In this document: positions 17,467-39,590 of the stretch, one piece after another
Layout of the letters: each line of letters begins with the position of its first letter
Numbering within the stretch: the first letter of the stretch is position 1
Virus record (IMG/VR): IMGVR_UViG_3300045988_154277
From: a virus
Length of the DNA stretch: 64,000 bases
Reading direction: 5' to 3' (one strand)
Notes under the pieces: generated by a model
What the model saw: the letters and a program-made list of their open reading frames with translations, nothing else
Database searches by the model: none
Told to the model about the DNA's origin: nothing
Position numbers and translations under genes: made by a program

Positions 17467-18441
17467 TCACTTGATGTGTTTCTTCATCTTCTGGATCGTA
17501 TAAGCTGCGAATGCAGCTTCGTCTTCCATCTGATCAAGAGCAACCGAGTAGTAGCTCCAGAGATGGACGATGAACGCCCGGAACTGAGCGAAGTTCTTAT
17601 GACGTTCCCTTGCGTTCTCTTTGTCATTCGCATTCAGCATACGACGGATATCCGAAGATGCTTTCTTGGCACCGGATGCGAAGATCGGTCCGAGTTTCTC
17701 ATAATCGGCATAGAGGTCAAACATCTGATCGCCGAACTTCATGACATTATCCAAGGACTGAGCCGTGTAGCCGAGTGCACTCAGCTTTGCCTTACCGAAC
17801 ATTTTCTGAAGAAGACTGTCTTTCTTGTAGGCAACGAACGAGAAGATACGCTTCGTGTTGGAGGAGTCAAGCGATGCAAGGACCTTGTCAACACCACCGT
17901 TCATCATGTTGATCGCTTCTTTCAAAGCGTCCAGACCGTCTTTACGAAGCTTATAGACGCCATCCAGTTTGGAGGCGTTGATCCCACGAACAGACTCATC
18001 GAGGACCGCTTCGTAGTCGATCTGTTTACCTTGGATCGCTGATTTGCCTTCATTGAAGAGTTTCTCATAACGGTTGATCGTCGGGAACCACGTGGAGATC
18101 TTGTGACCGATCCGTGTTCCAAGCCATTCGAATTTCTCTGCGATGCTTGCAAAGAATCCAGTGATCGCATCATCGAGACGCTCCAGAGAGTAGTCATCTC
18201 CGATCAGAGCTCTGATCTGACCGTTGTCGTCGATCAGGGTACGGAACGCTTCCGTAGCACCATACTGTTTCAGATACTGTCCGATCTGGATCAGGTTATC
18301 AACCGCCGTGATATCCCGTTGCAGTTCATCCAACATCGCTGCACATTCCATCGATGTGGTGAGATGCTCGTAAGCGAGTTCCGCATCATCCCACTTAGGA
18401 TATACCTTGGTTTGAGTGAGTGATTCAATACCGAGTTGCAT
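17467..18441 (-). CDS. paralog-family protein A (candidate inner-body/virion protein)
   Basis: Start MQLGIESLTQ after CAGGAGCATACAA SD. N-terminal signature MxLGxExL...YG(A/V/Y)T is shared with five other ORFs in this window. Confidence 0.55.
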   Translation of the reverse strand: MQLGIESLTQTKVYPKWDDAELAYEHLTTSMECAAMLDELQRDITAVDNLIQIGQYLKQYGATEAFRTLIDDNGQIRALIGDDYSLERLDDAITGFFASIAEKFEWLGTRIGHKISTWFPTINRYEKLFNEGKSAIQGKQIDYEAVLDESVRGINASKLDGVYKLRKDGLDALKEAINMMNGGVDKVLASLDSSNTKRIFSFVAYKKDSLLQKMFGKAKLSALGYTAQSLDNVMKFGDQMFDLYADYEKLGPIFASGAKKASSDIRRMLNANDKENARERHKNFAQFRAFIVHLWSYYSVALDQMEDEAAFAAYTIQKMKKHIK

Positions 18442-18496
18442 TTGTATGCTCCTGTATAAACACACATATCCCCTTTTAAGATATCATTACATCTAT

Positions 18497-18505
18497 GGGG
18501 GGGGG
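18497..18505. repeat. homopolymeric G9 tract inside a 10-bp-stem hairpin upstream of gene 17467..18441
   Basis: CATCTATGGGGGGGGGTTACCACCCATAGATG. Confidence 0.55.
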
Positions 18506-18547
18506 TTACCACCCATAGATGTTAACACAACACACTACATAGGATCG

Positions 18548-19741
18548 TTAGTGGTTGATATCGAATGTACCGCGTTTACCTTCACGGTCGTTACCAGTTG
18601 CTCGTAATTGATTGATAATAGCTCGTAAGCGAGAAGCTGCTTGTTCTACACTCCCAAACACCTTCTCCATATCAGTTGAGATTCTCGTGAGACATGTGTG
18701 TATGCTTCTAACAGTCTCTAACATCGCTTGACATGCAGCTGCAAAATTACGCAAATACGTCTTAAAATCAGTTTGTTCCGTTTGCGTTTGTAAACTCTGA
18801 ATGTGTTCGAGTACACGTATATTCACGAGCGACTTACCACTCAATCGTTTGGCAGCAGTTGACAGAGTACGAGTCACAGATGTTATTCGAGCTTCGAGAT
18901 CATGATAATCGTTAACAACCCGATCTACAGAACGAGCTGTATCCCAACCGCTATCAATCGGACCACGCTCCAACCGATTCTCATTCAACTCTGTTATCGC
19001 ATTGTGTAACGTGGTTAAATCGTCTCCTAGTCTATCGACAATCGTTTGTAACTCATCAGTCTTTTTAGTTACATCACAAGAATAAACACCATTCATGATG
19101 TTATCGACCTCTACAGAGGTAAACGCGTTTGCTTGATCTAAACTACGACTTACATCACGTTCGATCGTACGCATGATGTCTCGAATGCACGATAATCTGC
19201 TTTGCAGTGCTGAAAATATAACGTGACTCTTAGGGTTAATTTCACCCTTAGTGTTATACACATCATCACTATCATCAATTTTCATCGCCTGAGTAAACAC
19301 GGGTGGGATAGATATTGGATTCACAGCTTCCTGGCTTATCGTGAAGTTATTCATGTATTTGTCATAAATCTCACGATGCTCCATGATGAACGCTCTGTTT
19401 TCATCCAACTTATCGGTTCTCTTCTTAGAGAACCACTTCTTGATATGTTCAGAGATCCAATCACAGATCTTCTTAAAATATTCACCCAGCTTACGGATGA
19501 ACTTCACAACAAGATCCCAAGCACTCTCCAACAACCCTTCATATGAAGGTGTGATGTTAGCATTTACAAGCGCATCCGTCACTTGTTGGATAAGCAGTGC
19601 TTCTCCAGCTCCAGATGGTTGTAGAGGATGTTCATATACAGGTACTAACTCTACAACATTATTCAAGGCCATCGCAAGCATATAACACTCATGCTGAGCC
19701 TGGTACAACTCAGATATCATCAAATCGTAATCCATATCCAT
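18548..19741 (-). CDS. paralog-family protein B (more divergent member)
   Basis: Start MDMDYDLMISELYQ after AAGGAGAACGTT. Weaker N-terminal similarity to the family. Confidence 0.45.
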   Translation of the reverse strand: MDMDYDLMISELYQAQHECYMLAMALNNVVELVPVYEHPLQPSGAGEALLIQQVTDALVNANITPSYEGLLESAWDLVVKFIRKLGEYFKKICDWISEHIKKWFSKKRTDKLDENRAFIMEHREIYDKYMNNFTISQEAVNPISIPPVFTQAMKIDDSDDVYNTKGEINPKSHVIFSALQSRLSCIRDIMRTIERDVSRSLDQANAFTSVEVDNIMNGVYSCDVTKKTDELQTIVDRLGDDLTTLHNAITELNENRLERGPIDSGWDTARSVDRVVNDYHDLEARITSVTRTLSTAAKRLSGKSLVNIRVLEHIQSLQTQTEQTDFKTYLRNFAAACQAMLETVRSIHTCLTRISTDMEKVFGSVEQAASRLRAIINQLRATGNDREGKRGTFDINH

Positions 19742-19816
19742 AACGTTCTCCTTATATAGGTCATAGCATGAGACTAAGAATGTGTCTCTCGGAGAAAGAA
19801 AAAGAAGCAAAAAGAA

Positions 19817-19845
19817 AGAGAGTAGAGTGTGATCTCTACTCTCTT
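19817..19845 (-). terminator. hairpin AGAGAGTAGAG-tgtgatc-CTCTACTCTCT with T-rich tail on minus strand
   Basis: Minus-strand reading is followed by TTCTTTTTGCTTCTTTTTC. Confidence 0.55.
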
Positions 19846-20193
19846 CTCTATACTCTAAATAATATGGTTATCTAACCCCCTAAGAACCCCCGGGTAGGGG
19901 TTGGGGCGTAGCCCTACATTTATGATGCTAAGGATGGAGGGTAGGGGAGATCTGATCATACACTGGATCTATCTCTAACCAATTCAAGATATCTATATCT
20001 TCGATTGATTAGAGGATAGATCTGACAGGCTTACGCTGGTGGATCTCCCCTACCCATCTCTGGATAGATACTCTTATGGTATTCCCGTTCGCTTCACGTA
20101 CGTTACGCTCACTCAAATAATATAGTTGTAGCAATATTTAATTACAGAGTAAAAAGTTACATCGTTATAGGTTAATCATATCTAACAAAAGAA
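19846..20193 (-). ncRNA. candidate structured noncoding RNA between two related terminator hairpins
   Basis: No ORF. 14-bp long-range inverted repeat GGGTAGGGGAGATC (19940-19953) / GATCTCCCCTACCC (20042-20055). Nested inverted repeat GATCTATCTCTAA / TTAGAGGATAGATC. G/C-rich hairpins. ATATTATTT(G/A)AG motifs at both ends. Confidence 0.35.
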
Positions 20194-20226
20194 GAAGAGT
20201 AGAGAGGGTGGATCTCTCTACTCTTC
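20194..20226 (-). terminator. 13-bp hairpin GAAGAGTAGAGAG-ggtggat-CTCTCTACTCTTC with T-rich tail (minus)
   Basis: Immediately after the stop of 20262..20951. Sequence-related to the 19817 hairpin. Confidence 0.55.
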
Positions 20227-20261
20227 CATGTAAGATCTTCTACGTTGATAGAGTTATCTGA

Positions 20262-20951
20262 TTAGATATCTCTCATACGTCTTACGACGTCATACAGTTG
20301 GTTGTTGTATTCAGCTAACCTTCTGGTGTAGGTTCTCATCTGTTCAGGGAGGTTAGGAACCTCCCTCTGGATCAGACGGATCGTCGTCTCCATGTTGAGA
20401 TGGGTATCGCTTAATTCAGCAGTCAATGACTTGTACTTATCGATCGTAGACTGCATCTCTGCATAAGCCTTCTTGGAAGACTCGATACCACTCTCCGTGA
20501 CTGCTTTCTGGTTCATCAGATAGAGTAGATATCCACGATAATCTTCGATCGTACAGTCTATACATCCTGCACAAGTCAGCTGACAGGATACCACTACAGG
20601 TGTATGACCTTGATGCTTATATACTTTGGTCTGTACATGGATATCGTAGACGTTCTCGATATCCACGATCGACATCAGGTGTACAGTCACCAGGAAGTCA
20701 TTCTCCACTTTGGATTTATAGAGCATCCCTTCGTGACGGACATACCCATCACTGAATACTTGTTGAGTCGTATGAGTTAACACCTCCAGGTAACTCCCAT
20801 CGTTCTTGGGATAGCCTTCTGGGAAGACTACACGTTTGTGGTCCTCATCCCACTTTAATAGATCGATCTTGTCTTCTGGGAAGACATACGTAGTATCCAT
20901 CAGGTGTTGAACTTTGTTCAACATCGATGTGATCAGTTCGTTCTGTTCCAT
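20262..20951 (-). CDS. hypothetical protein (229 aa)
   Basis: GAAGGAG SD before ATG. Confidence 0.5.
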   Translation of the reverse strand: MEQNELITSMLNKVQHLMDTTYVFPEDKIDLLKWDEDHKRVVFPEGYPKNDGSYLEVLTHTTQQVFSDGYVRHEGMLYKSKVENDFLVTVHLMSIVDIENVYDIHVQTKVYKHQGHTPVVVSCQLTCAGCIDCTIEDYRGYLLYLMNQKAVTESGIESSKKAYAEMQSTIDKYKSLTAELSDTHLNMETTIRLIQREVPNLPEQMRTYTRRLAEYNNQLYDVVRRMRDI

Positions 20952-20969
20952 ATTAGATTAATACTCCTT

Positions 20970-21404
20970 CTATTTATGAGTTGGTTGTAACTTGGAGAAC
21001 TCGATCTGTCCTCCGTAGAATGCGTTGTACTTCGGTAAGTGATAGGCTTTCGCTGCACGCTTACCATGTAACTCCCACCAACATCCCCGGATCCACATCT
21101 TCGTAGAACAAGTTGTGGTGAATGTTACATAGGACCAGTGGTTGCTGATCCTTAGTAATTTCTCCTTGAACATATCTACATAGTAGATGCTGAGGTTGTC
21201 CGTATTACAGCTGACGTATTTTAGGATCCATCTTCTCTTATGATAGAAGATGGAGGATGGGAGTCGTTCTTTGATTATGTCGGCATTTACGCTTGTCATA
21301 TCAAGATGTTTTAGTCTGTAGAGGACGTTGGATATAACCTCGTACTCTACTGACCAGAAGTGCCCTAACGACTGATAGGAATAGTTGTTCTCTGTGTACT
21401 TCAC
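20970..21404 (-). CDS. hypothetical protein (144 aa)
   Basis: Track ORF, Trp/Cys-containing, no motifs assigned. Confidence 0.4.
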   Translation of the reverse strand: MKYTENNYSYQSLGHFWSVEYEVISNVLYRLKHLDMTSVNADIIKERLPSSIFYHKRRWILKYVSCNTDNLSIYYVDMFKEKLLRISNHWSYVTFTTTCSTKMWIRGCWWELHGKRAAKAYHLPKYNAFYGGQIEFSKLQPTHK

Positions 21405-21581
21405 ATGTCACACACTCCTCATCTGACACCTGCATGTTTGATCGACATGCAGGTAGTATAGGTCACCTCTTCAGAGACCCGTTCGAACTTCTTAGTTTGG
21501 GGATACCGTATGTACAGTAACCCATTCCACTTGATGATGACAAGACCATCGTTGCCTTTGTGTAATATTCTGTTGGTCATG

Positions 21582-22259
21582 TTAAACTCTCCCTGGTATA
21601 AATGTGAGGTTCACTCTGAGCATCGGTATGTTGTGGTTGTGATACATCTCAAGAGTTTCTTGTTTTTGATTATCATAGAGTACAGTACACCGGACATTCT
21701 TGAGTGGAGTGTATTGTATCAGTTGTTTGGTGAACTCCTCCGTATCAAGATCCACGTAGAATCTGATGTTTTCCTTATCGGTTGGGAATATATCAGGACT
21801 GAACTCACGATTCAATACAGCTCGGAATGACTCTTCCGAAATGAATTGTATATCCGGTAGTACCGGGCTGGACCATAGTGAGATTTTGCGATCCCACATG
21901 GTACTCCACACAATGTTTTTACTCACTACGTAGTAGTGGAGATCGGGTCGCTGTATGCATTCGGATATGAGCATCGAGAGCAATGTCTCTGTCTTACCGG
22001 ATTGCCGACATCCGCATATTGCAGTGAACACCGGTTCCGGATGCCAAACACGAGTACGAACTTTATCAAAGAACACATCCAACTCATGGTCGTACATGTG
22101 TTCGAAGGTTCGACGAATGGTTTCGAGCTTCTCAGCTCTGTTTGGTTTAGATTGCATTAGAATCCTCCTTGGGTTGATGGGTATAACTTGTTTGTCCTTG
22201 TGATATATTAAGAGTGACATCATACAACAACGACGATCTACATTGACCAGATCAGACAT
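21582..22259 (-). CDS. P-loop NTPase with terminase-large-subunit-like Walker A (RQxGKT)
   Basis: AICGCRQSGKTETLLSML resembles the (R/K)QxGK(T/S) Walker A of phage terminase ATPases. At 225 aa it is shorter than a complete large terminase. Its start ATGTCTGATCTGGTC carries the repeat core found in the upstream cassettes. Confidence 0.45.
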   Translation of the reverse strand: MSDLVNVDRRCCMMSLLIYHKDKQVIPINPRRILMQSKPNRAEKLETIRRTFEHMYDHELDVFFDKVRTRVWHPEPVFTAICGCRQSGKTETLLSMLISECIQRPDLHYYVVSKNIVWSTMWDRKISLWSSPVLPDIQFISEESFRAVLNREFSPDIFPTDKENIRFYVDLDTEEFTKQLIQYTPLKNVRCTVLYDNQKQETLEMYHNHNIPMLRVNLTFIPGRV

Positions 22260-22279
22260 CAGGGTAGAATTGGGAGAAC

Positions 22280-22420
22280 GTTAGTTAGTTACAACACTCT
22301 TCTTAGAGAAGAGTTGTCGTCTTAATTCTCGCAGATATGCTTCTTTTGCTCTGACACGAGTCATGACCTCGTCCATATGCTGAGAAGCACTCTTACTTGA
22401 ATTAGCGTAAGAGAACGCCA
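22280..22420 (-). CDS. MAF-family small protein a (46 aa)
   Basis: TGGAGGTGATCGAT SD then ATG. MAFSYANSSKSASQHMDEVMTRVRAKEAY... is paralogous to proteins b and d (MAF/MPF...SASEHM...). Confidence 0.55.
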
Positions 22421-22580
22421 TATCGATCACCTCCAGTCTAACCGTTCAGGTACGAATGAACGGATAAGTTCGGTTAGATCAGATCTGTATGTTGTTGTAT
22501 GAGTCACTTAAATTCAAAGAGTGATAGGAAATGTTACGGCAGTTGTTGACCAGACAAGACATCAACAACCGAGTTCACTG

Positions 22581-22727
22581 GTTATTTCTGTGGATGCTTG
22601 ACGATCCATCTTCTCCAATCTAAGTTAGACTGGTTAGGATGTCTTTGCATTACAGATTGCATGTGTTCTGAAGCTGTCGGTGGGACTAATACTTCAGGAT
22701 GTTTAGCATCGATGTATGCAAATGCCA
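22581..22727 (-). CDS. MAF-family small protein b (48 aa)
   Basis: GAAGGAGGTGAGCTCT SD. MAFAYIDAKHPEVLVPPTASEHMQSVMQRH... Confidence 0.55.
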
Positions 22728-22893
22728 TAGAGCTCACCTCCTTCTACCACAAACAGGGAACTGTCTTTGTGGTGTGACAGGTTGGAGCATGTCTGTAATA
22801 CACCTCCTATCACTTAAATTCAAAAGAGTGATGGGTTGTAGATGTGCGAAAATCACCAACCAGATCAGTCATCGGTGATTTGTGTCACGTACG

Positions 22894-23068
22894 ATCATTG
22901 AGCGATAGCAACACTCGATGCTTTTGACGTGAGTTTTGCATCAATAACACGTGTTTGCTTAAGAGCATTGCGCTCCCAGCGTTGACGATCACGTGCTTCT
23001 TGTTCAGCAACACACTTGTATCCGGCATTCGGATCTAAGATGCGTTTGAAGAACTCATCTGAGGTCAT
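22894..23068 (-). CDS. small protein c (57 aa), unrelated to the MAF family
   Basis: TTAGGAGGTGATGTCAT SD. MTSDEFFKRILDPNAGYKCVAEQEARDRQRWERNALKQ... Confidence 0.5.
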
Positions 23069-23393
23069 ATGACATCACCTCCTAACTACTGTAGATTAAA
23101 CAGTCTTGCAGTAGGACTGGTTATAAGAGTCAGTAACAGAACCTCTCTCCTTCAGGTGAGGGATGTATGTTACTACGAACTATTCTTCCGTTGGACGTTA
23201 GTCCATCGTGATGTAATAGAAGGACAGTATGCTAAGAACATATGGTTAAAATGTTCTTGTTGCCTGGAACAGGCCATCGACGTAAGTCGGTGTACTCGGT
23301 AACACGAGGAAGCTCCTTCCTTCAGGTAGGAGTAGTTCACGTTCAGATCTGTAGTCACCTACCATCCATCACTCGTCTTATCGAAAAAGAGAC

Positions 23394-23431
23394 AGCTAAG
23401 GGATGAAGGATACAACTCCTTCATCCCTTAG
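23394..23431 (-). terminator. 16-bp perfect hairpin with U-run (minus strand) inside the cassette array
   Basis: GCTAAGGGATGAAGGA-gttgta-TCCTTCATCCCTTAGC followed on the minus strand by TGTCTCTTTTTCG. Confidence 0.65.
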
Positions 23432-23547
23432 CTAATCGTGTATTCGAAGTATAACTCTACACACGTTGGATATAGTAAGAACAACACTTCACAGTTGTCG
23501 AAACAACATCGACCAGATCAGTCATCGATGTTGAATTGTACTCACAT

Positions 23548-23745
23548 CTAAGTGGTTAACATTGCCACGATAGATGGCGTTTTAGTTGGTTTGTTGCTGT
23601 GATATATTCCGTAGTGTTTACGGAGCATATCCATCAACATCTTCTGCTTAGCTTTGGCACGTGCTACACGAGCATCATGCATTTCAGAAGCAGATTTAGG
23701 AGATAGCACGGTTGGGTGCTTCTCATCCATCATCGCAAACGGCAT
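23548..23745 (-). CDS. MAF-family small protein d (~65 aa)
   Basis: TTAGGAGGTGATTTGT SD then ATG (MPFAMMDEKHPTVLSPKSASEMHDARVARAKAKQKML...). The track lists a GTG-extended version. Confidence 0.55.
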   Translation of the reverse strand: MPFAMMDEKHPTVLSPKSASEMHDARVARAKAKQKMLMDMLRKHYGIYHSNKPTKTPSIVAMLTT

Positions 23746-23847
23746 ACAAATCACCTCCTAACTACCGACTCAAGCACAAGTGAGTCGATCAGCTTGGTTG
23801 GATCAGATCTGTAAAACTATGAAGTGTTGTTCAATACAAACAAGTTA

Positions 23848-23886
23848 GCTAGGGATAGTGGAGTGTTCGCCTCCACTATCCCTAGC
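23848..23886 (-). terminator. 15-bp perfect hairpin terminator after endolysin gene
   Basis: CTAGGGATAGTGGAG-tgttcgc-CTCCACTATCCCTAG directly after the TAA at 23893; T-containing tail on the minus strand. Confidence 0.6.
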
Positions 23887-23892
23887 TGGTTA

Positions 23893-24426
23893 TTAGTTGA
23901 CTTTGTTCCAGAGGTTGGACTCAGCCTGTCTACGTTTAACAAGCCCCGGTGCGATATCGTAAACGATCTTACCGTTCTTATCCTTTACGATTTTGCCCTT
24001 CGAGACTCTCTTCACTTTGTTCCATCTCTGGATCTCAGAGGGAACCGAACCATACTGGCGCTGGTTCAGTTTCTTAAGGAGAGTGGATGAAGCGAAGTTC
24101 GATCTCCCCACGTTGTAAGTGAATACGATGAGAGCAGCCTTCTGGTTGTCCGTCAGAGGGACCTTGACCTGTGTATCGATATATCCACCGATACTGGTTA
24201 CGTATCCGTCCAGAATACGATTTGCTTCTTCTTTAGTCATGTGACCACGAGCAACGAGGTTCTTATCATTAAACCCCCAACCGATGGCTTTCTTGTTGAC
24301 ATCAGTGTAGGGGGCTGAACGGAAGGTTTCGAACTGCTTGATCAGTTCGGTTGCCGAAGTCTTCCAATCTTGTGCGAAGACGTTGATGGTGAGGATGATG
24401 GTGATAAGAGTGATGATGTGTTTCAT
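23893..24426 (-). CDS. endolysin, GH24 (T4-lysozyme-like) with N-terminal signal peptide / signal-anchor
   Basis: N-terminus MKHIITLITIILTINVFAQ is hydrophobic. LIKQFETFRSAPYTDVNKKAIGWGFN matches the T4L catalytic E...D...T region ([21 protein letters not shown]). ALIVFTYNVGRSNFASSTLLKKLNQRQYGSVPSEIQRW matches [41 protein letters not shown]. Confidence 0.8.
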   Translation of the reverse strand: MKHIITLITIILTINVFAQDWKTSATELIKQFETFRSAPYTDVNKKAIGWGFNDKNLVARGHMTKEEANRILDGYVTSIGGYIDTQVKVPLTDNQKAALIVFTYNVGRSNFASSTLLKKLNQRQYGSVPSEIQRWNKVKRVSKGKIVKDKNGKIVYDIAPGLVKRRQAESNLWNKVN

Positions 24427-24484
24427 GTTGTTGATTCCTTTTGTTTAGGGTTGTTGGGTTGATACAGCTAGATGTATTCAATAA

Positions 24485-24494
24485 GTAATATATA
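24485..24494 (-). promoter_or_regulatory. TATATATTAC promoter motif upstream of endolysin gene
   Basis: Plus GTAATATATA, ~60 nt upstream of the ATG at 24426. Confidence 0.5.
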
Positions 24495-24574
24495 TGCGAA
24501 ATCTTTTGAACTACACTGCATACGGTGTATCTAGGTATGGGATAACTACCCATACCTAGATACGTTGAAATGTA

Positions 24575-25567
24575 TTATGCGTTGGCGGGAGCAGGAAGTT
24601 CTTTCGTATTGGAGAACTTACGATTGAATGCTTCAAGACGGTTCTTGATGTAGAAGATACCATTAGCTGCTTGTTTCGCACATTCTTCGATAGCATACAT
24701 CACAGTTGCGGCTTGTCTGATTGTATTCTGAGCAACCTTAAGTTGATCTACATCACCCTTCTTCTCAGCACGTGCTTTGAGTTTCTCAGGGATCGTACGG
24801 AGACTGTTCACCAGGTTCTCACCCTTCTTGCACATTTCGTGGAGAGATTTGGACATCTCAGGCGCTTCATTGATAAACTTCTCATCGACTGGCTTTTTAG
24901 GATACTCACGTCCACCAGTCATAACAATACCGAGTTCGCCAGCCAGATCATTGCCGTGCTGACGGATCTGATTAGATTCTTCGTCGTTCATAGAACGGAT
25001 CACATCAACATTGGCTTTGGCACAGATCGACCGATCGAAATCAGAGATGATCTTCTGGATGTTGGAGTTGGTGAACGATTCGGCAACCATCGTTGGATTA
25101 CTGTCTGTAATGATGGTATCTGCTCTGAATGGTTGCTTCTTTGACTGTCGTTTCTTTGAATGATTGTTTTTGGCTTCCTTAGCCTCCTCTTGGACAGCTT
25201 GGTTGGCTTTGTCCGTAGACTTGAACAAGTTCGTAAAGAACTTCTTGATCTTCGTCCACAGATCTTGGAACCATTTCACAACAGCATCCCAACCTTTCGA
25301 GATGGTCTCACCGAGACCTTCCATCGTGAGCGATATGTTGTTCTGTCCGTAAAGGTACTGAATTGTTTCAGTACTTCCAGACTGTTGGATCACATCACGG
25401 ATTTGGATCAGCTGATCCATCGTGGTGATACGATCCATCAAGCAGTTGTATGCTTCCCAAGTGACGTCATAAGCCGACTCCATCGCGATATAAGCATCCA
25501 GGAGTTCTTCGTTGCTTGCGACACTGGATGTCTGCGGGATGCTCAGGTGTTCTAATCCGAGGTTCAT
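24575..25567 (-). CDS. paralog-family protein C (candidate inner-body/virion protein)
   Basis: MNLGLEHLSIPQTSSVASNEELLDAYIAMESAYDV... with the N-terminal family signature. AAAGGAAACAACATC SD. Confidence 0.55.
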   Translation of the reverse strand: MNLGLEHLSIPQTSSVASNEELLDAYIAMESAYDVTWEAYNCLMDRITTMDQLIQIRDVIQQSGSTETIQYLYGQNNISLTMEGLGETISKGWDAVVKWFQDLWTKIKKFFTNLFKSTDKANQAVQEEAKEAKNNHSKKRQSKKQPFRADTIITDSNPTMVAESFTNSNIQKIISDFDRSICAKANVDVIRSMNDEESNQIRQHGNDLAGELGIVMTGGREYPKKPVDEKFINEAPEMSKSLHEMCKKGENLVNSLRTIPEKLKARAEKKGDVDQLKVAQNTIRQAATVMYAIEECAKQAANGIFYIKNRLEAFNRKFSNTKELPAPANA

Positions 25568-31524: not shown

Positions 31525-31526
31525 CG

Positions 31527-32447
31527 TCACCGAACAGGTTCGATGTTCTTCAGAGTTTCCATGATGTCTTCTGCCGTTGGCATCGTATCATGGAACTTCT
31601 TCAACCTGGAAGTAGCGTTCTCCACCACGAGGTTCAGCTCTTCCAGAGTCAAACTGTCTGTATCCGTCACCCAGTCAGCGACGTAATAGAGTCGTCTGGA
31701 TCCTTCGATCATGCCGAAGAGGATCGGATCTCTCTTCTTGATCACGGCTTTGTCCAGTTCCGCTACTTTGAAAGCTTCCAAGTTGGGATCGTAGTGTGCG
31801 ATACAGTAGTTATCGAACACCTTCAGTTTGTCCATCTTGTCTTTCTTCTCAGCAACAGGGAACGGAATCAACCCAGTGTAGTTCCTTATGAAGTCGATCC
31901 GAACACCTTTCTTACATTTCAGGAAGAACTCAACCATCTTCTCTTCTGAGACGTATTCAAGATATCCATTCTTGACCAACGTCATCTCACCGACAAGTGC
32001 GTTGAGTTTCTTCTTCAGCTCTTCCACAAGAGCTGTCTGACCATTTTGAGCAGCACGGTTCGCCAATCGAGTTACCACTTCGACCATAGCTTTGGTGTCA
32101 TCAGACAATGCACCTTTGGCATTCTTGATCTTGTCGAAGGTCGTCTCAACAGGATCTTTCTGTCTCTCGATGAAGAGGTCGATAATCCGATCGAAGAACT
32201 TCCTTTTGATCGTCTTGGTAACCGATTTGATATACTGCTCGTTGTTCCAGAAATCAGGGTTCGATTGGAACGATGATGCATTAGTGGCCATGGAATCCAA
32301 CAATGAATTGGTATCCATGTCGATGGCGGAGGTGGACTCTTCTCTGTACTTCGGCAAAGTCAGTTCCTTGTAGAAGTACTGGAAGATCTTAAGTCTTGGT
32401 TTTCCCATGCTTGTTTCGATGCATGGATGTTTGGTGTACTGTGTCAT
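31527..32447 (-). CDS. hypothetical protein (306 aa)
   Basis: Track ORF. Confidence 0.5.
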   Translation of the reverse strand: MTQYTKHPCIETSMGKPRLKIFQYFYKELTLPKYREESTSAIDMDTNSLLDSMATNASSFQSNPDFWNNEQYIKSVTKTIKRKFFDRIIDLFIERQKDPVETTFDKIKNAKGALSDDTKAMVEVVTRLANRAAQNGQTALVEELKKKLNALVGEMTLVKNGYLEYVSEEKMVEFFLKCKKGVRIDFIRNYTGLIPFPVAEKKDKMDKLKVFDNYCIAHYDPNLEAFKVAELDKAVIKKRDPILFGMIEGSRRLYYVADWVTDTDSLTLEELNLVVENATSRLKKFHDTMPTAEDIMETLKNIEPVR

Positions 32448-32449
32448 GA

Positions 32450-32665
32450 TTATTCCTCTTTTGTTTTAGGTGGCATAGGAGCTTCACAACAGATATCAAT
32501 CACTCCAGAAACAGACGTATCAACGTATACCACAGGGATTCGATCACATCCTGTATAAACAGGTTCTGGTGTTTGACTGTTGATCCACACAGCGAGTGGA
32601 AGATCTTGATTCTCTACTTTCTTTAGAAGTTCGATGACTTCTCTAACGGTTAGTTGTTTGTGCAT
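32450..32665 (-). CDS. hypothetical protein (71 aa)
   Basis: Track ORF, tightly packed between neighbours. Confidence 0.4.
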   Translation of the reverse strand: MHKQLTVREVIELLKKVENQDLPLAVWINSQTPEPVYTGCDRIPVVYVDTSVSGVIDICCEAPMPPKTKEE

Positions 32666-32952
32666 GATACCTCCTTAAGCAGTTGTTCTACTGCTTTTTG
32701 AATGTACGGCAACGCAGCTTTTCCATAGTCGTTCGGCTCAGAGAGTTTCTCCTCTTCAAAGCGGATGACAACACCGGTATGTCCGATGTATTGATCCCCT
32801 TTGAACACGTCAATCTTGGCATAGCCTGTACTAGCATCTACCAAGCTGATAAATGTAGTAGCCAGGATGTCGTCTTGATACCCAACATCAACAAGTAAGT
32901 CAGGTGTGTTGTTCACATGACATCTCATCTTTTTAGCAGTCAGCCTCATCAT
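32650..32952 (-). CDS. hypothetical protein (100 aa)
   Basis: Track ORF. Confidence 0.4.
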   Translation of the reverse strand: MMRLTAKKMRCHVNNTPDLLVDVGYQDDILATTFISLVDASTGYAKIDVFKGDQYIGHTGVVIRFEEEKLSEPNDYGKAALPYIQKAVEQLLKEVSCTNN

Positions 32953-33997
32953 CTTCTTCTCCTATGATAATGTATTCGTCGTCTTTGGTATCCATCAGAG
33001 ACTGATACGTCTCGACCCGCTCGATCGCTGCTGCGATCTGCTGGATCAGGATAGCATCACGCTGTTCTTCCGGTGTATGCTGTATCAAGCTGATCACCCG
33101 TTCCACGGAAGGATAGTCCTGCAGAACTTGTCCTTGTGCATGGATCCGTTCTGTGATCAGTTGTGTGAGGTTGTCAAAAGCCTCGAGTCTCTGTTCTGGT
33201 TCCCAATCGTTCAAGATCAGACACAACCTCATGAAGAAATCCAACGTGATATCTTCATGTTGTTGTTCTATGTAACTCGTGATGGGAGCGGTATCGTCCG
33301 TATCAGTACCAACACTTGCGGCATGTTTGTAGAGGTTGTACTCACGGGTGATGTTCTCCATCGCCAGTTCGTTGTATTTGTTGAAGACTGGAGTGAGGAA
33401 CAGTCCAGATGAAGCAGTAGCGTCCATCAACATATTAAGGAACTTAAGACGACCTTCATTGTATTTTTGAGCATCAAGGGAACCGAACTCATTCCGCAAC
33501 GGTTCTCTATTCATCACCATCACGGCATACGATGCGAATGAGATATAGTCCAGATCGTGGAGCAGAGCCCAACTGGGATGTTGCTTGATCTGATTAAGAT
33601 CATATCCGATCTTGGTGCTGTTGATCATAGCAGAGACATCACAAATGAAGTCGGGTGATATATTATCAACGTTCTTTGCATACTGCTCCCATTCAACTGC
33701 GGATTTCTGTTCGTTGCATGAATCTCCCGGGATGTACACAACATCATGCCAGCAGATCGCAACGAGTACTTTCGCCAGGTCTTCTACCGTCAGTTCATCC
33801 TGGAAGAACTTTCGGTTATCTGGGTTCTTGTACTCCGCATCGAGAACTTGCAACATAGTCTCGACATGTTGCACGGTGTGGTACTTCGTTTTGTCAGTGG
33901 ACATCCGACTGACACCAGCATCCATCCACTGATGGATGTCAGGATACTCTTTGACTGTCAAGTCAATGACTGTATTGTTGGAAATGATTGGGTGCAT
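32933..33997 (-). CDS. hypothetical protein (354 aa)
   Basis: CAGGAGGTAGTATT SD. TATATATTAC motif ~45 nt upstream. Confidence 0.5.
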   Translation of the reverse strand: MHPIISNNTVIDLTVKEYPDIHQWMDAGVSRMSTDKTKYHTVQHVETMLQVLDAEYKNPDNRKFFQDELTVEDLAKVLVAICWHDVVYIPGDSCNEQKSAVEWEQYAKNVDNISPDFICDVSAMINSTKIGYDLNQIKQHPSWALLHDLDYISFASYAVMVMNREPLRNEFGSLDAQKYNEGRLKFLNMLMDATASSGLFLTPVFNKYNELAMENITREYNLYKHAASVGTDTDDTAPITSYIEQQHEDITLDFFMRLCLILNDWEPEQRLEAFDNLTQLITERIHAQGQVLQDYPSVERVISLIQHTPEEQRDAILIQQIAAAIERVETYQSLMDTKDDEYIIIGEEDDEADC

Positions 33998-34038
33998 AAT
34001 ACTACCTCCTGTTGATATAGTTTGTTGGTTCGTTACTA

Positions 34039-34050
34039 GGTAATATATAC
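34039..34050 (-). promoter_or_regulatory. TATATATTAC promoter motif
   Basis: Plus GGTAATATATAC upstream of the gene starting at 33997. Confidence 0.5.
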
Positions 34051-34105
34051 GTGAAAGAACATAGAACTACACTAGATTGGGATATCCCAATCTAGTGTAG
34101 ATATG

Positions 34106-35146
34106 TCATTTCTTCTCAGTATCAGGGGTTGGTTGTTCTTCAGGTTGAGCTTCCTGTTGTGGTTGTTCTTCCTGCGTAGCAACACTGTAGCCCTGTGCTT
34201 TCTTGGCGATCTCAGTAACCAACCTACGGAACCGTTGTTCCACAGATTTCAGGTACTTGATATCGTTGAAGATGATCCTGGTGTACACGAATACAGCTTG
34301 TGATTCAACGGTAGGTCCAGCATCATTACGGAACCTGTTGTTCGTAAGACCAGAGACCAGTTTACGAGTCTCCTTACTTACAGTTTTCAGGTTGGTAAGA
34401 ACACTGTTGCCTGCTTGCATACAAGATTTGATCTTGCTATCCACTTCTACGAACCTATCGTACGACGTGAATCCAAGCGTCTGTAGGGAAGACATCTTGC
34501 GTTGACGATCTTCGTAGGGTGTTTGATAGTTGGGACCAACCTTCATACCACCCGCTGGAACTTTTGAGTTGAACCTCTGCAGATATGTTGCACGTAAGCT
34601 ATCGATCGGAGCCGTTGGGAGAGACGGTTTCACCACATCATCGTACGTTACCTCGAAGTGTTTCTGCACGATCTCACACGTCTTGATAAAGCGAGAAGCA
34701 GAGGTCGAATGGAACTTCTCATTCTGCATCGACTCGACTTTGTCTTTGATGAACGCGAGTTGCTTCGTGTAGGAACGTTGACTACGAGAGAAGAACGCTT
34801 CTGCGAAATCCAACACCTTGGAGACGATCGTCTGCAGAGCGTGAATGAACGCAGTGATCCCTTTCTTCACAACACCACCGATTTCGCGAGCGGTTACTTC
34901 GATACCATACTGCGCAAGTGTATTACCGTAAAGAGACTCCACAGAACGAGTATACCCGTACTTCTGGATCACAGTATCGAGTATGGTGAGATGCTCGATC
35001 GAGTGCAAGATCTCTTCTGCTGTTCGGATCGCGTCTTCTGCTTCATTTATGGTGCTAACGAGCATACACTCAGCAGCGATCGCGTCCTCGATTGAGAAGA
35101 GATGGTCGTTCTTGGACGGAACGAGATTTTCAAATCCAAAACGCAT
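34106..35146 (-). CDS. paralog-family protein D (candidate inner-body/virion protein)
   Basis: MRFGFENLVPSKNDHLFSIEDAIAAECMLV...VIQKYGYTRSVESLYGN, family signature. Q/E/P-rich C-terminal tail. Confidence 0.55.
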   Translation of the reverse strand: MRFGFENLVPSKNDHLFSIEDAIAAECMLVSTINEAEDAIRTAEEILHSIEHLTILDTVIQKYGYTRSVESLYGNTLAQYGIEVTAREIGGVVKKGITAFIHALQTIVSKVLDFAEAFFSRSQRSYTKQLAFIKDKVESMQNEKFHSTSASRFIKTCEIVQKHFEVTYDDVVKPSLPTAPIDSLRATYLQRFNSKVPAGGMKVGPNYQTPYEDRQRKMSSLQTLGFTSYDRFVEVDSKIKSCMQAGNSVLTNLKTVSKETRKLVSGLTNNRFRNDAGPTVESQAVFVYTRIIFNDIKYLKSVEQRFRRLVTEIAKKAQGYSVATQEEQPQQEAQPEEQPTPDTEKK

Positions 35147-35228
35147 ATCGATCCTTCTTGTTTAAAACTAGACATAGGAGGAGGAACAAGACCTCCTCCT
35201 ATGTCAAAGTTCATATAAGAGTTACAGC

Positions 35229-35969
35229 TTACTTAGCCGCGTTCTCTTCCGGAGCAGCTTGGTCAGCATTCTTGTCTTTCGACTTGTCGGCACCACCTGC
35301 ACGCTTCGCGGCAGCGATGAACGAGTTGGCAACTCGGATGACGTTTCTGTCGTCCTCGACCGCCTTCTTGATGGCATCACGCAGCTGTTGAATGTATTCA
35401 TCAGTAGCTGCATTCTGCGCTTCTTTGAGCTGATCTTCAAGTTGACTTTTTGTCTTCCCAAGTTCATTGACAGCCTGCTTCAGTTTATTGAGAGCAGCCG
35501 TGAACTTACCTTCATCGGTAATCTTACCATCGATCACAGATCCGCCTTTGATTTCGAACGGACCTTTGAACTTCAGCGAGTTCAGAGCAGAAGCAGTACG
35601 TTCTTTCTGGTTGAAGAGCCATTTGAAGAAATTCGTAACTTTCGCCCAAAGATCCTTCAGGATCTGCTTGATCTTCTGACCGAGACCCTTCTTGGCCTCT
35701 TCGTTCTCAGCTTCCATAGAAGCGGCGCTGCTGAAGTTCTCTCCATAGAGAGCTTCCAGAGAACGAGTCACGCCATATTTCTTGATGCACTTGCTGATGG
35801 CGTTGACGTTGTCATAAGTGCGAACCGTAGCGGTGAGTTCATGACACAGATCCAGGACATCGGAAGCAGCCTGATTGAACTGGATCAGAGAATCCAGGTA
35901 CTCATACGAAAGTTCACCAGAAGCTTTCGGAGCCATGCCCAGATTTTCAAAACCAAGATTGATACCCAT
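35229..35969 (-). CDS. paralog-family protein E (candidate inner-body/virion protein)
   Basis: MGINLGFENLGMAPKASGELSYEYLDSLIQF...CIKKYGVTRSLEALYGEN, family signature. Confidence 0.55.
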   Translation of the reverse strand: MGINLGFENLGMAPKASGELSYEYLDSLIQFNQAASDVLDLCHELTATVRTYDNVNAISKCIKKYGVTRSLEALYGENFSSAASMEAENEEAKKGLGQKIKQILKDLWAKVTNFFKWLFNQKERTASALNSLKFKGPFEIKGGSVIDGKITDEGKFTAALNKLKQAVNELGKTKSQLEDQLKEAQNAATDEYIQQLRDAIKKAVEDDRNVIRVANSFIAAAKRAGGADKSKDKNADQAAPEENAAK

Positions 35970-36123
35970 GAGTATTCACTCCTGTAAAGATGTTTGTACG
36001 TACATTTGCGAGATGATCATCACACACAAGAAGTCAAATGTAGTCTGAAGAGATAGACATACACGTAACCTCAACACATATGATGTCACCGTGAGACATG
36101 TTACAACTACACACTGTCTTGGT

Positions 36124-37083
36124 TTAGGAGTCCGTATCCATGAGACCGTACGGATCATTCGTCGCCACATCAAGATCTGATGCTGTGGTCGTAATGTCCT
36201 TTTCTGATACATTGCGTGTCTTGAAGTACCGGTAGTCCCACGTTACTTCCTGAAGCTTCTTGTACAGTACATTCAGGATCTTCTTAACACAGTTGTAGTA
36301 CCGTGTATCATCTGTTGTCAGTTCAAACTCTTGCATACACAGCGTGACAAGACGATACGTGTCGTGTTTACAAATGTATGTGTCTCGATTCCACACGGGG
36401 TAGTTTGCATTCAGAAACTCACAACAAGTACAATACTTATCTTCCGTGTAAGTATCCGGATCTTGTAAGTAACGTGTCAATGCTCTGTTGTATAGCGTCT
36501 TATAGAACTTATCGACAACATGGTTGATCGCGGTTGTGTAAAGGGCATGCTCTTTTTGGAACCCTTTATCGGTCGCTTCTTGTTCGTCTTTGAACGTATC
36601 AATGCGAGCATCTGCACAACAACCAAATATCTTCTTGATGATACCAGGTTCTGCGATGTGTTGTGTGCAAAGATCCATCACCCATTCAGGTAGCGGGTGA
36701 AACGCAGGTTGTTGTAGTGACTTTTGATTGGGTTCGTAGAACGATTTGGCGATACTTTCTACGGTGTATGGTATACAGTCGGGGTTGTCGATATGACATG
36801 TTCTAACCCAAGGGTCGCTGTTTTTATGTAGCCGATACATGATCTGGTCAACTACTGCTTCGTAGTTGATTTGCTCCGGTACAGGGATGATCTCTTTGAG
36901 AAACGTTATCAGAGTGTTTCGAAAGTTAGCGTCTACGGACGCTGGTATCTTGACATACCCATAGTTTCTCCAGACACTGTTCGCAAGTGGTTGGATCAAC
37001 CCGTCGATGGTTGCTTGGAATTCTTCTCTTGTTACGATGTTGTTCTCCATAATGCTCCTCTTGTCATCTGTTGAATATCCCAA
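36124..37083 (-). CDS. hypothetical Cys-containing protein (319 aa)
   Basis: Track ORF. Confidence 0.5.
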   Translation of the reverse strand: MGYSTDDKRSIMENNIVTREEFQATIDGLIQPLANSVWRNYGYVKIPASVDANFRNTLITFLKEIIPVPEQINYEAVVDQIMYRLHKNSDPWVRTCHIDNPDCIPYTVESIAKSFYEPNQKSLQQPAFHPLPEWVMDLCTQHIAEPGIIKKIFGCCADARIDTFKDEQEATDKGFQKEHALYTTAINHVVDKFYKTLYNRALTRYLQDPDTYTEDKYCTCCEFLNANYPVWNRDTYICKHDTYRLVTLCMQEFELTTDDTRYYNCVKKILNVLYKKLQEVTWDYRYFKTRNVSEKDITTTASDLDVATNDPYGLMDTDS

Positions 37084-37453
37084 ATCTTCTCTTGATCTTC
37101 ACTTTCACCGTTACCTTGGATAACCCAACCAAGTACATTTTGAAGTAGGGTTCTCCGTAGTTGCAGCAATCTCTGTTATGTTTGTTGATCTCTTCTACTA
37201 CACCAAGTGCAGCTCCCATCTGTTTTAACAGACTGTAATTCACGACACGAAGAGATACGTTCAGACTGTACTCCAACACCTTGTCGTGATACATCTCCTC
37301 CACACATCGACGATATGCATCGTGAACGAGGTCGTAGATACATCTGGTGATCTCATCACTTGGGTTCTTCGCATTCTTGATGCGGATCGACATGTTCTTC
37401 AATTGTTCTTCTTGTTTCTGGTAAACAAGATCGTAAAGTTGTTTGGCATCCAT
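37064..37453 (-). CDS. hypothetical protein (~129 aa), start moved to internal ATG
   Basis: AAAGGAATTAGAAACA precedes ATG (MDAKQLYDLV...). The track start is a TTG with no SD. Confidence 0.45.
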   Translation of the reverse strand: MDAKQLYDLVYQKQEEQLKNMSIRIKNAKNPSDEITRCIYDLVHDAYRRCVEEMYHDKVLEYSLNVSLRVVNYSLLKQMGAALGVVEEINKHNRDCCNYGEPYFKMYLVGLSKVTVKVKIKRRFGIFNR

Positions 37454-37637
37454 TGTTTCTAATTCCTTTCTACGTATGCATGCTATGATCACTTGACATT
37501 CAATATATTTAACCAATCTAACATGAGGTGTAAGATGGCTTTCAAAAGACGTAAGATCCAACTGGATCCAGAGATGAAACAGAGGATGGAAAGTAGCAGT
37601 AGGAACATTTTCGAAGTGTTCTACTCTGCGACGACTA

Positions 37638-37645
37638 CCCCCCCC
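37638..37645. repeat. homopolymeric C8 tract in intergenic region upstream of tail-fibre-like gene
   Basis: GACTACCCCCCCCAGGTG. Confidence 0.5.
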
Positions 37646-37754
37646 AGGTGCGTTCCCACTTTGGACAGGTGAGTGGATCCTGAACTGTGCGGGTACTTAC
37701 CCAACATTCTACCAGAAAGCAGTAGAATATCAATCCAAAGGTACGATCCGTGCT

Positions 37755-38573
37755 GTGAGCAATGCTGATTATGAATCAGACTTAACTATATATGGAGAGT
37801 GTGGCGCATTCGTAATCCAAGGGAATGACATCCGTTTACCTAAGATCACTTCGTATGTGAAATCATGCAATCTCAAAAGCGACATCGGTGTTACACTACC
37901 TCCTGGTCTTCCTAACATCACAGGTACATTCGGTGGTATTTCCAGAAGGACAGATGCCGGATGGATCCACCCGAGTGGAGCGTTGAGTTTGATCAGAGAA
38001 CCTTTTGGTTGGGGTCCCGCCGGTAGTGATCCAACTTACGCTGGAGAACTTCAGTTCAACGCTAACGCATCGAACAGCATCTATGGAGCATCGGGTACCG
38101 TACAGCCTCCTTCTGTTCAGTTAGCGGCTTACATCCAAGTGTATCACGGAGTATCGGACCAATCTCTCGTCAACATCGGTGAACTCACCAACCAGATCTC
38201 TCAGTTATCTGCGAAAGTAACAGAACTCACCAGACAGTTGGATACCTACAAATCGAACAACTTCGGTGCTCCTGATCATAGCAATCGTGTTGTGTTGACT
38301 CCTGAAACATCGGCAACAGAACTATCATACACTCCGAATGTGAATGGATATATCTCGGGATACTTCATGCGAAAGGACGACGGAGCAACCCAGATCGACC
38401 TGATTGTAAATGGAGTTACCTATAGCAACTGGTCGAGACCTGGTTCGTATTACGTGAATGGTCACATGTCCGTACTGATGCCTGTGAAAGCAGGACAGAC
38501 GGTCGTTGTAAGAAGAGTCAGTGGTAATTGGAACAACAGGCTCAACTGGTTGTACTTCATCCCGTGTGCTTAA
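37755..38573 (+). CDS. tail-fibre-like protein (272 aa)
   Basis: Gly/Ser/Asn-rich with a central coiled-coil-like NIGELTNQISQLSAKVTELTRQL, composition typical of phage fibres. Start codon uncertain (GTG, no SD). Confidence 0.4.
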   Translation: MSNADYESDLTIYGECGAFVIQGNDIRLPKITSYVKSCNLKSDIGVTLPPGLPNITGTFGGISRRTDAGWIHPSGALSLIREPFGWGPAGSDPTYAGELQFNANASNSIYGASGTVQPPSVQLAAYIQVYHGVSDQSLVNIGELTNQISQLSAKVTELTRQLDTYKSNNFGAPDHSNRVVLTPETSATELSYTPNVNGYISGYFMRKDDGATQIDLIVNGVTYSNWSRPGSYYVNGHMSVLMPVKAGQTVVVRRVSGNWNNRLNWLYFIPCA

Positions 38574-38618
38574 TAGTTGATAGAGTGAGGAGTATGACAC
38601 TCCTCACTCTATCAACAT

Positions 38619-39590
38619 TCACTTCTCTATGATCTTTAAAAGAACTTGGCATTTCTTACCAACAAGCGTAGAGTATTTCATCACACTACGTACATTGTTG
38701 TCGATCTGTTTGACAAGCGTCTTCACGGTGTCGAGTTTGGTCTTCGCCATCTCTTTCGACATCTGGGTGTTGGACTTTGTGTCGTTAGCGATTGCTTTCG
38801 CCGTCGTATGGAAGTTACGAATGGCTCCGATGTAAGTGTTCATCTCATCGAACCGTGTAGCCAAAGTATTCAAACTGGTAGCATCGAACCATTTACCGTT
38901 GACAGGGTCCATACCATCCTCAGTATTGCGGACATCTTTTCCGTTACCAGACTCCTTTTTGAGTTGGTCTTGGGTGGTGGTCAGGGCGTTATCTTCCGTT
39001 TTAGATTGTTCCTCCTGTCCCTGTGCTTGTACGGTCTCTTCGTTCGTCTTCAGTGCTTTAAGCTTATCGGCTCGATCTTGGAACTCTTTCTGATTGTCCA
39101 AGATCTCTTTCAGGAACTTCGCGATCGACTCAGTTGATTCACCGTGTGTGGTATACTCTTTCTTGAGTTTATCCACATTCTTCGGATCTTGACATTTGTT
39201 CGCCAACTTACGAAGGAGATCAGCAGAGGCCTTCGTGCTGACAGACATCACCTCTGTGAGGTATCGAATCAACTTCGGGAAGAACTCAGTTACTTTATCC
39301 CACATCGTAGTCATCGTCTTGGAGATCCCTCCTGCAACTTCAACGCTAGAAGTATAACCTTCTTGTGCAAGTTGTAAGCCGACGATATCTTGAAACACAT
39401 GATCTGTACGCAATGTATCAATGTGATGTTCTAACCACATCAGATTACGACACAACACATCCAGATCCTCCAAGGACTGGAACAGTTCTCTCGATGTGTC
39501 ATTGTGCTGATCTTCTTTCAAGGTCAAAAGGATCCGTTCATCCATAGACAAGGATGGGTCCTTATAAAGCGGTGTAAAATTAAATGACAT
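38619..39590 (-). CDS. paralog-family protein F (divergent), start moved to internal ATG
   Basis: CAGGAGACCTATC precedes ATG (MSFNFTPLYKDPSLSMDERILL...). This removes the 166-nt overlap with the upstream gene implied by the track ORF. Confidence 0.5.
   Translation of the reverse strand: MSFNFTPLYKDPSLSMDERILLTLKEDQHNDTSRELFQSLEDLDVLCRNLMWLEHHIDTLRTDHVFQDIVGLQLAQEGYTSSVEVAGGISKTMTTMWDKVTEFFPKLIRYLTEVMSVSTKASADLLRKLANKCQDPKNVDKLKKEYTTHGESTESIAKFLKEILDNQKEFQDRADKLKALKTNEETVQAQGQEEQSKTEDNALTTTQDQLKKESGNGKDVRNTEDGMDPVNGKWFDATSLNTLATRFDEMNTYIGAIRNFHTTAKAIANDTKSNTQMSKEMAKTKLDTVKTLVKQIDNNVRSVMKYSTLVGKKCQVLLKIIEK

Follow-up and report, generated by a model that had tools for sequence, protein, structure and literature searches.

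Divergent genes of the PF12699 internal head protein family, probably processed precursors, in an uncultured phiKZ-like jumbo phage

Among the giant phages, the Pfam family PF12699 (phiKZ_IP, 'phiKZ-like phage internal head proteins') corresponds to 'paralog family A', which has two representatives in SPN3US (gp53 and gp54), at least five in phiKZ and up to seven in phiPA3 (PMC5694885). Here we examine six genes, designated A to F, that are dispersed over positions 17,467 to 39,590 of a 64,000-nucleotide stretch of DNA from the IMG/VR virus record IMGVR_UViG_3300045988_154277, and this whole stretch is called the window below. We consider it probable (roughly 0.8) that the six genes are PF12699 internal head, or inner-body/ejection, paralogs of an uncultured phiKZ-like jumbo phage, and that their products are processed precursors.

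The described members of the family are cut by the head protease. No ejection proteins of SPN3US are more abundant than gp53 and gp54, from which the prohead protease gp245 removes long propeptides of 125 and 137 amino acids by cutting at A-x-E (PMC5694885). The two proteins have an identical N-terminus of 15 amino acids that includes ARE-12 and SVE-15, and phiKZ gp93 is cut at SLE-13 (PMC5694885). The mature N-termini of the SPN3US proteins are (E)GWKETLKDLFER for gp53 and (E)SLWDDIK for gp54 (PMC10052503). In phiKZ, gp92, gp93, gp94, gp95, gp97, gp162 and gp163 share the PF12699 domain and are proteolysed, and gp93, gp95, gp97 and gp92 are injected with the DNA (bioRxiv 10.1101/2024.03.24.586471). 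Cryo-electron microscopy (cryo-EM) of phiKZ has further shown that two pieces located between cleavage sites, gp93 14-84 and gp162 19-134, line the inner capsid surface (PMC11297242).

All six open reading frames (ORFs) are found on the minus strand, as are all parts of these genes whose positions are given below. They are A (17467..18441, 324 amino acids), B (18548..19741, 397 amino acids), C (24575..25567, 330 amino acids), D (34106..35146, 346 amino acids), E (35229..35969, 246 amino acids) and F (38619..39590, 323 amino acids). A and B are adjacent, as are D and E, and both pairs are in tandem; C and F are solitary. Each ORF begins with ATG and is preceded at proper spacing by a Shine-Dalgarno sequence of the AGGAG/AAGGA type (6/6 ORFs; ACAGGAG in A). 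The coordinates given in an initial annotation of this DNA, and its statement that each gene has its own Shine-Dalgarno sequence, are correct for all six genes, as are the start codons.

That annotation had proposed a single six-member family with a shared N-terminal module and divergent C-terminal halves. The evidence for common ancestry is strongest for A, C, D and E. Pairwise BLASTP comparisons give E-values of 1e-12 for C-E, 2.5e-8 for C-D, 4e-7 for D-E and 1e-4 for both A-C and A-E, and each of these alignments begins at residue 1 and extends for about 125 amino acids. Hidden Markov models (HMMs) were also built from the remaining members and their orthologs, with one member left out each time, and were searched against all 350 six-frame ORFs of the window. 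The omitted member was recovered in every case (A at E 2.3e-7, C at 4.6e-29, D at 7.3e-17 and E at 1.3e-24) and, apart from B, no other ORF fell below E 0.1. Because each of the four is recovered in this manner, A, C, D and E are judged from sequence to be secure homologs within the N-terminal module of about 125 amino acids, and the similarity beyond chance that had been expected of family members is present among them. HMM searches of the window ORFs revealed no seventh member. From residue 141 onward there is no significant pairwise similarity among the proteins, as expected from the claim that their C-terminal halves diverge.

The membership of the other two genes is less firm. F starts with MSFNFTPL and lacks the MxLGxE opening, including its G-x-E, and it carries EGYTSSVEVAGG as the counterpart of KYGYTRSVESLYG, with the motif GYTSSVE, together with an amphipathic helix. 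The F protein of the window is not significantly matched by the four-member HMM (E 0.48), and a broader family HMM matches F orthologs co-linearly at E-values of 1.7e-5 to 7e-4. A profile-profile comparison of the kind envisaged in the initial annotation, carried out with hhalign, aligns the module to the F family over 102 columns with a probability of 75% (E 2.7e-5). This alignment requires trimming to the N-terminal module, and a full-length hhalign comparison of the C and F families returned a spurious C-terminal match only (probability 12%). We consider F a probable distant member. For B, the corresponding hhalign probability of the module is 13%, and the family HMMs match it through one helix only (residues ~62-124, E 4.4e-5 to 1e-2). 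B lacks both MxLGxE and YGxT. Its tandem position beside A and its matching architecture, an amphipathic helix and an acidic-then-basic layout, favour its inclusion. A phmmer search of B against 1.84 billion representative proteins found its own ortholog and one fragment only, and hence no bridge from B to PF12699, and we treat B as a possible member whose place in the family is not secure. Of the six members first put forward, therefore, four are secure, F is probable and B is possible.

The literal signature that had been used to define the family also survives only in part. The sequence YG-x-T-R-S-x-E-x-LYG is exact in D and E, but is altered to SGSTETIQYLYG in C and to YGATEAFRTL in A.

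Assignment of these proteins to PF12699 comes directly from C and E, which score 33.4 and 37.9 bits against a Pfam gathering score of 27 bits. In C the match spans residues 79-145 and has an amphipathic helix as its core. The orthologs of C score 35-39 bits, and a precomputed PF12699 flag is present on all 35 of those that are near full length; two fragments (199 and 236 amino acids) are unflagged. One F ortholog (P0050) reaches 26 bits on the co-linear region, just under the cut-off. PHROGs profiles give weak and mixed matches to internal head protein and tape measure families for B, C, D and E, and none for A and F. The relationship to phiKZ proteins, which had been suggested as a comparison, is found by profile and not by BLAST. 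BLASTP of phiKZ gp89-97, gp162/163 and gp175-177 against all window ORFs gave nothing below E 0.05, but the family HMM aligns to residues 127-216 of gp93. Likewise, tblastn of E against 50,697 phage records gave no match.

An AlphaFold2 model, also among the analyses foreseen initially, was computed for C and resembles internal head and virion proteins of phiKZ-like phages. It is all-helical (predicted local distance difference test score 77.6, predicted template modelling score 0.74), with a disordered stretch of 15 residues at the N-terminus and a single long helix (residues 19-63) packed in a compact fold. Foldseek comparison with BFVD, a collection of predicted viral structures, yields 35 matches at E<=1e-3, with E-values down to 5e-6 and template modelling (TM) scores of ~0.45-0.5. 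Roughly half of the matches are unnamed, and the named ones are internal head or virion structural proteins from phiKZ-like jumbo phages or from uncultured myoviruses. They include proteins from 201phi2-1, PhiPA3, Noxifer, Psa21, Ea35-70, RAY, RSF1, Eowyn, pTD1 and AR9.

The genomic surroundings are those of a phiKZ-like (Chimalliviridae-type) phage. Among the products of the window are a gp180-like virion RNA polymerase subunit, which shares 31-33% identity with 314 phiKZ-like phages, as well as split RNA polymerase beta/beta' subunits, topoisomerase II, a baseplate protein and virion proteins. Both virion and non-virion split RNA polymerase subunits are present, which is typical of phiKZ-like phages. 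The sequence of the window is found unchanged in a 278,450-bp metagenome scaffold (ENA ERZ28568400, BRIT16-1_SAMN02333979_METAG-scaffold_10), where it occupies about 126,751-190,750 in reverse orientation, and similar contigs, ~270-281 kb long, occur again in other assemblies. No close cultured phage was found by megablast of the 23-kb region against the 50,697 phage records. Taken with the Pfam scores of C and E and the fold comparison, this context supports the idea, already present in the initial annotation, that the genes are phiKZ-type inner-body or ejection paralogs. That interpretation named a correct and already described family, because the literature describes PF12699 paralogs as proteolysed, injected head proteins.

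Several sequence features favour processing by a head protease that recognizes S/A/G-x-E. Such motifs are concentrated near the N-termini. There are 28 of them in the first 90 amino acids of the six proteins, compared with 10.3 +/- 2.7 in shuffles of local composition (~2.7-fold; 0/5000 shuffles reach 28), a statistic that is inflated because the counted paralogs share ancestry, and the pattern nevertheless holds for each protein. The remaining 1426 amino acids contain only 16, which is at or below expectation, and 21 other window proteins have a mean of 0.43 in their first 90 amino acids. A proteome-wide depletion of S/A/G-x-E (130 observed versus 163 expected) lies inside the spread shown by control motifs. 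The same N-terminal regions are strongly acidic. The predicted propeptides, 68-88 amino acids in length, have isoelectric points (pI) of 4.0-4.65, and the predicted mature parts have values of 9.1-9.5 in five of the six proteins and 6.5 in B.

The individual propeptides can be delimited by a conserved Glu at the junction of the two regions. In A, the predicted propeptide comprises residues 1-87 (18181..18441), ends with SLE-87, and has a pI of 4.2 and five S/A/G-x-E motifs, of which G-I-E occupies residues 4-6 (nucleotides 18424-18432). The predicted propeptide of C comprises residues 1-83 (25319..25567), has G-L-E at 4-6 (25550-25558) and ends with TME-83. That of D comprises residues 1-88 (34883..35146; pI 4.6), has G-F-E at 4-6 (35129-35137) among eight S/A/G-x-E motifs, and ends with ARE-88. 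In E, residues 1-86 (35712..35969) have G-F-E at 6-8 (35946-35954) and end with SME-86. In F, residues 1-84 (39339..39590; pI 4.5 versus 9.1 for the remainder) end with SVE-84, which hhalign places on the junction Glu column. The N-terminal 68 amino acids of B have a pI of 4.05 and include no Lys or Arg, and SYE-68 or LLE-72 is the predicted cut in this protein.

The family HMM places the junction Glu on the mapped cleavage site of SPN3US gp54 (ARE-137|SLWDDIK) and on that of gp53, before GWKETLKDLFER; E87 of A, for example, sits in the column aligned with ARE-137. Just after the junction is a cationic amphipathic helix, which in C is formed by residues 96-117 (VVKWFQDLWTKIKKFFTNLFKS; 25217..25282). 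The equivalent helices are at 18070-18135 in A, 19439-19504 in B, 34805-34870 in D, 35616-35681 in E and 39255-39320 in F. Ranked by hydrophobic moment within its own protein, this helix is first in B, C and F, fourth in A, eighth in E and sixteenth in D. The helix immediately following the mapped cleavage site of SPN3US gp54 also ranks first.

A second candidate site is located at the extreme N-terminus, where the peptide M-x-(L/F)-G-x-E-x-L opens A, C, D and E. The LG-x-E within this peptide had been called invariant and was noted to fit the S/A/G-x-E rule. The fit to the rule is correct. Conservation is high, with G-x-E kept in A, C, D and E of the window and in orthologs of C whose identity is as low as 50%, but falls short of invariance, since A-L-E (still within the S/A/G-x-E rule) takes its place in a seventh paralog that relatives possess, and further exceptions are described below. 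The conserved Glu at residues 83-88 is the likelier candidate for the main maturation site, and the G-x-E at residues 4-8 is more likely an additional targeting or propeptide-trimming element, similar to SLE-13 of phiKZ.

Several observations weigh against our assignment. A, B, D and F, four of the six proteins, themselves give no PF12699 match at E<=1. The fold search of BFVD with a model of F found no significant structural neighbour, a PDB fold search with the C model found nothing significant, and a PDB sequence profile search returned coiled-coil or designed-helix noise only. The junction of C has Thr instead of Ser, Ala or Gly at P3, and P3 of this T-E site varies (S/A/H/Y) among C orthologs. 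One D ortholog has N-F-D instead of G-x-E, and B and F are without that site, so the N-terminal G-x-E is dispensable. Lastly, a head protease of the Peptidase_S80 type (phiKZ gp175 or SPN3US gp245) was not found in the window and the two stretches that flank it (L015 and L024), which together cover ~80 of the 278 kb, by an HMM built from eight sequences (phiKZ, Noxifer, Eowyn, AgentSmith, Goslar, SPLA3, RSL2 and JM-2012). A protease profile search of a large protein database was dominated by other phages and gave none on a contig of this phage among the best 120 of 177 matches, and protease gene neighbourhoods gave none on a related IMG/VR contig among the best 80 of 210 loci.

Two candidates that emerged from these searches were rejected. 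The best PDB matches of C, helical bundles resembling alpha-pore-forming toxins (E 0.03, TM<0.25), were judged to be generic helical similarity, and P0053, considered as the protease of this phage, belongs to the Goslar cluster.

The architecture of these proteins suggests a three-part precursor. An acidic helical propeptide of ~70-90 amino acids, dense in S/A/G-x-E, would be followed by the junction Glu and cationic amphipathic helix, and then by a C-terminal domain that is helical and basic and diverges fast. On the model of phiKZ and SPN3US, the genes would be expressed late, and the conserved N-terminal module might steer the precursors into the prohead. There, an S80-type head protease would cut after the junction Glu (SLE-87 in A, TME-83 in C, ARE-88 in D, SME-86 in E and SVE-84 in F) and perhaps also at further propeptide sites, including the G-x-E at residues 4-8. 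The basic mature domains would then stay with the packaged DNA and be at least partly ejected into the host. The virion location and ejection proposed here follow from homology with the described proteins, and the cleavage is predicted from motifs.

Perhaps, instead, the module is cut at both ends and remains bound to the inside of the capsid, where it would be a minor capsid protein that cements the capsid or determines its size, such that only the C-terminal domains form the inner body. The phiKZ cryo-EM structure shows fragments of this kind, flanked by protease sites, on the capsid lining (PMC11297242), and the window module is similarly flanked by the G-x-E at 4-8 and the junction Glu at 83-88. 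The module is also far more conserved than the rest of the protein, both among the paralogs and in B orthologs, and its conservation among paralogs would be expected if all of them must fit the same major capsid protein. In phiKZ, however, the fragments take the form of extended arms that include a short helix-loop-helix, whereas the corresponding region of the C model is one long helix in a compact fold. The presence of 4-8 internal S/A/G-x-E motifs in the module suggests fragmentation over survival, and the family HMM aligns to gp93 127-216, with no similarity detected to gp93 14-84. We regard a lasting capsid role for the module as possible but somewhat unlikely.

The distribution of motifs along the proteins also bears on whether they serve in their entirety as an internal assembly core that is degraded and expelled at maturation, with nothing ejected into the host. 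In favour of such a core, giant phages have no identified scaffold protein, a core function has been proposed for long propeptides (PMC5694885), and the proteins examined here are all-helical. However, the clustering of S/A/G-x-E within the first 90 amino acids, with only 16 in the other 1426, argues that the C-terminal domains survive, and the homologous proteins of phiKZ and SPN3US are retained in many copies in the virion and are injected. A purely transient core is consequently an improbable explanation. We give even less credence to the notion that these are non-virion helical proteins whose similarity to PF12699 reflects the composition of an amphipathic helix and not a common function. 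It is true that the Pfam match consists mainly of one such helix (residues 79-145), that weak spurious matches to tape-measure, BAR, apolipophorin and LL-37-like helices occur, and that the PDB offers no significant fold match. Yet the Pfam scores exceed a curated cut-off, and the similarity among A, C, D and E runs from residue 1 through motifs that are not helical (YGxT, LYG). Moreover, all named entries among the top 40 BFVD neighbours are from phiKZ-like jumbo phages or are internal head proteins of uncultured myoviruses, and the combination of protease-motif enrichment and bipartite charge matches that of processed homologs.

Returning to the reading of these genes as processed and ejected internal head proteins, we can envision a more elaborate function, which we offer as a doubtful speculation. 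The proteins might form a modular delivery cassette in which the acidic propeptide, with its G-x-E leader of 6-8 residues, masks a cationic helix of LL-37-like hydrophobic moment until cleavage at the junction unmasks it. Mature proteins could then bind DNA in the head and later the host membrane, seeding the lipid vesicle described for early phiKZ infection. Exchange of C-terminal domains, together with gain and loss of paralogs, would in this case represent turnover of host-specific effectors.

Some of the genes are preceded by a sequence that may be relevant to their expression. In phiKZ, late promoters have the consensus TATG, whose G is the +1 nucleotide (PMC4666361). TATG is located 24-30 nucleotides upstream of the start codon in A (18465-18468), B (19762-19765), D (35173-35176) and F (39611-39614), often right after a GC-rich hairpin, and AATG is found in C and E. 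The TATG of D lies 30 nucleotides upstream of the gene and just after such a hairpin, and the hairpin before F exhibits compensatory changes in a relative that has diverged by 50%. Within the interval from -20 to -35, TATG precedes four of the six family genes versus 2 of 31 other genes (Fisher p 0.003). These motifs are possible phiKZ-type late promoters, and we take them as a lead only because a four-base motif is weak evidence.

The number of paralogs differs between close relatives. In L014, an IMG/VR contig whose A ortholog is 98% identical, the seventh paralog mentioned above (MRLALEELGVV...) is located at 18250-19104 of that contig, between A and the topoisomerase gene, and a frameshift divides B in two. 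At the equivalent place (15474-17392) the window carries three unrelated ORFs, and near-identical phages are therefore polymorphic for the presence or absence of a paralog. L010, which is more distantly related, carries a further paralog beside C. The number of paralogs thus changes among close relatives, in line with descriptions of the family.

Other features of the window were observed along with these genes. Immediately downstream of C, on the minus strand, is a gene for a 177-amino-acid endolysin (23893-24426; phrog_7, E 4e-33) with a hydrophobic, signal-peptide-like N-terminal stretch (MKHIITLITIILTINVFAQ). It is followed by 1.6 kb (22260-23890) with no ORF of at least 80 amino acids, the equivalent of which in L010 has been called as a string of genes encoding 45-107 amino acids. 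No tRNA was found anywhere in the window. A 306-amino-acid ORF on the minus strand (31527-32447), which has TATG at -30, matches a transposase PHROG (phrog_10081, E 2e-8) and is odd amid otherwise unassigned genes. A 752-amino-acid virion protein (39659-41917; phrog_3181) adjoins a minus-strand ORF of 2670 amino acids (41928-49940) that is rich in Lys, Gly and Ala, has repeated stretches of the GGL.SKAGG type, and is assigned to no family.

A gp178-like virion RNA polymerase gene at the end of the window is split into an ORF of 1121 amino acids (59907-63272) and one of 398 amino acids that starts beyond the window end. Within the gap of ~770 nucleotides between them, the Rfam group I intron model matches twice in tandem, at 43 bits (E 2.9e-9) and 21.7 bits (E 0.007), and both scores are under the gathering score of 50 bits. 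The matches are located at 63266-63624 and ~63700-64000, the latter continuing past the window end (L015 13360-13718 and 13794-14142). The gap may thus correspond to a twin group I intron.

The six genes are a divergent set of members of an already known family and do not constitute a new kind of system. They extend PF12699 to a very divergent lineage of uncultured 278-kb phages that recurs in metagenome assemblies. The layout of an acidic propeptide rich in cleavage sites, a junction Glu, a cationic amphipathic helix and a variable basic domain is kept even though similarity to the phiKZ and SPN3US sequences has vanished. As an outcome, there are now specific predicted cleavage sites and a conserved module that can be used for tests of capsid targeting.

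The resemblance to known PF12699 proteins includes the helix-rich fold, the several paralogs per genome, the acidic propeptide with multiple S/A/G-x-E motifs and the conserved extreme N-terminal peptide that ends in a cleavage-type motif, all in a genome with two split RNA polymerases. As in SPN3US gp54, the junction Glu falls on the mapped site and an amphipathic helix follows. There are differences as well. The predicted propeptides have 68-88 amino acids here compared with 125-137 in SPN3US, the N-terminal motif is a G-x-E that ends at residue 6-8 and not an S/A-x-E that ends at residue 12-17, and the proteins have 246-397 amino acids whereas known members have 395-816. The genes occupy four places over 22 kb instead of one or two operons, and BLAST detects no sequence identity between their products and the members from phiKZ and SPN3US. 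The module further recalls phiKZ gp93(14-84) and gp162(19-134), which are also N-terminal PF12699 regions that are bounded by protease sites and conserved in position, although sequence similarity to these segments is not detected and the module is predicted to be a long helix and not extended arms.

A functional analogy, without implied homology, can also be drawn with the internal proteins IPI, IPII and IPIII and with Alt of phage T4. The T4 internal proteins have a capsid-targeting sequence (CTS) of 10-20 amino acids that terminates with Glu and that the prohead protease gp21 cleaves off, and the proteins are basic, packaged with the DNA and ejected (PMC5694885). The genes described here likewise are paralogous and encode a short N-terminal peptide ending in Glu (6-8 amino acids) and basic predicted mature parts. 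In T4, however, the CTS is the whole propeptide, whereas here the corresponding peptide is the tip of a conserved module of 80 amino acids.

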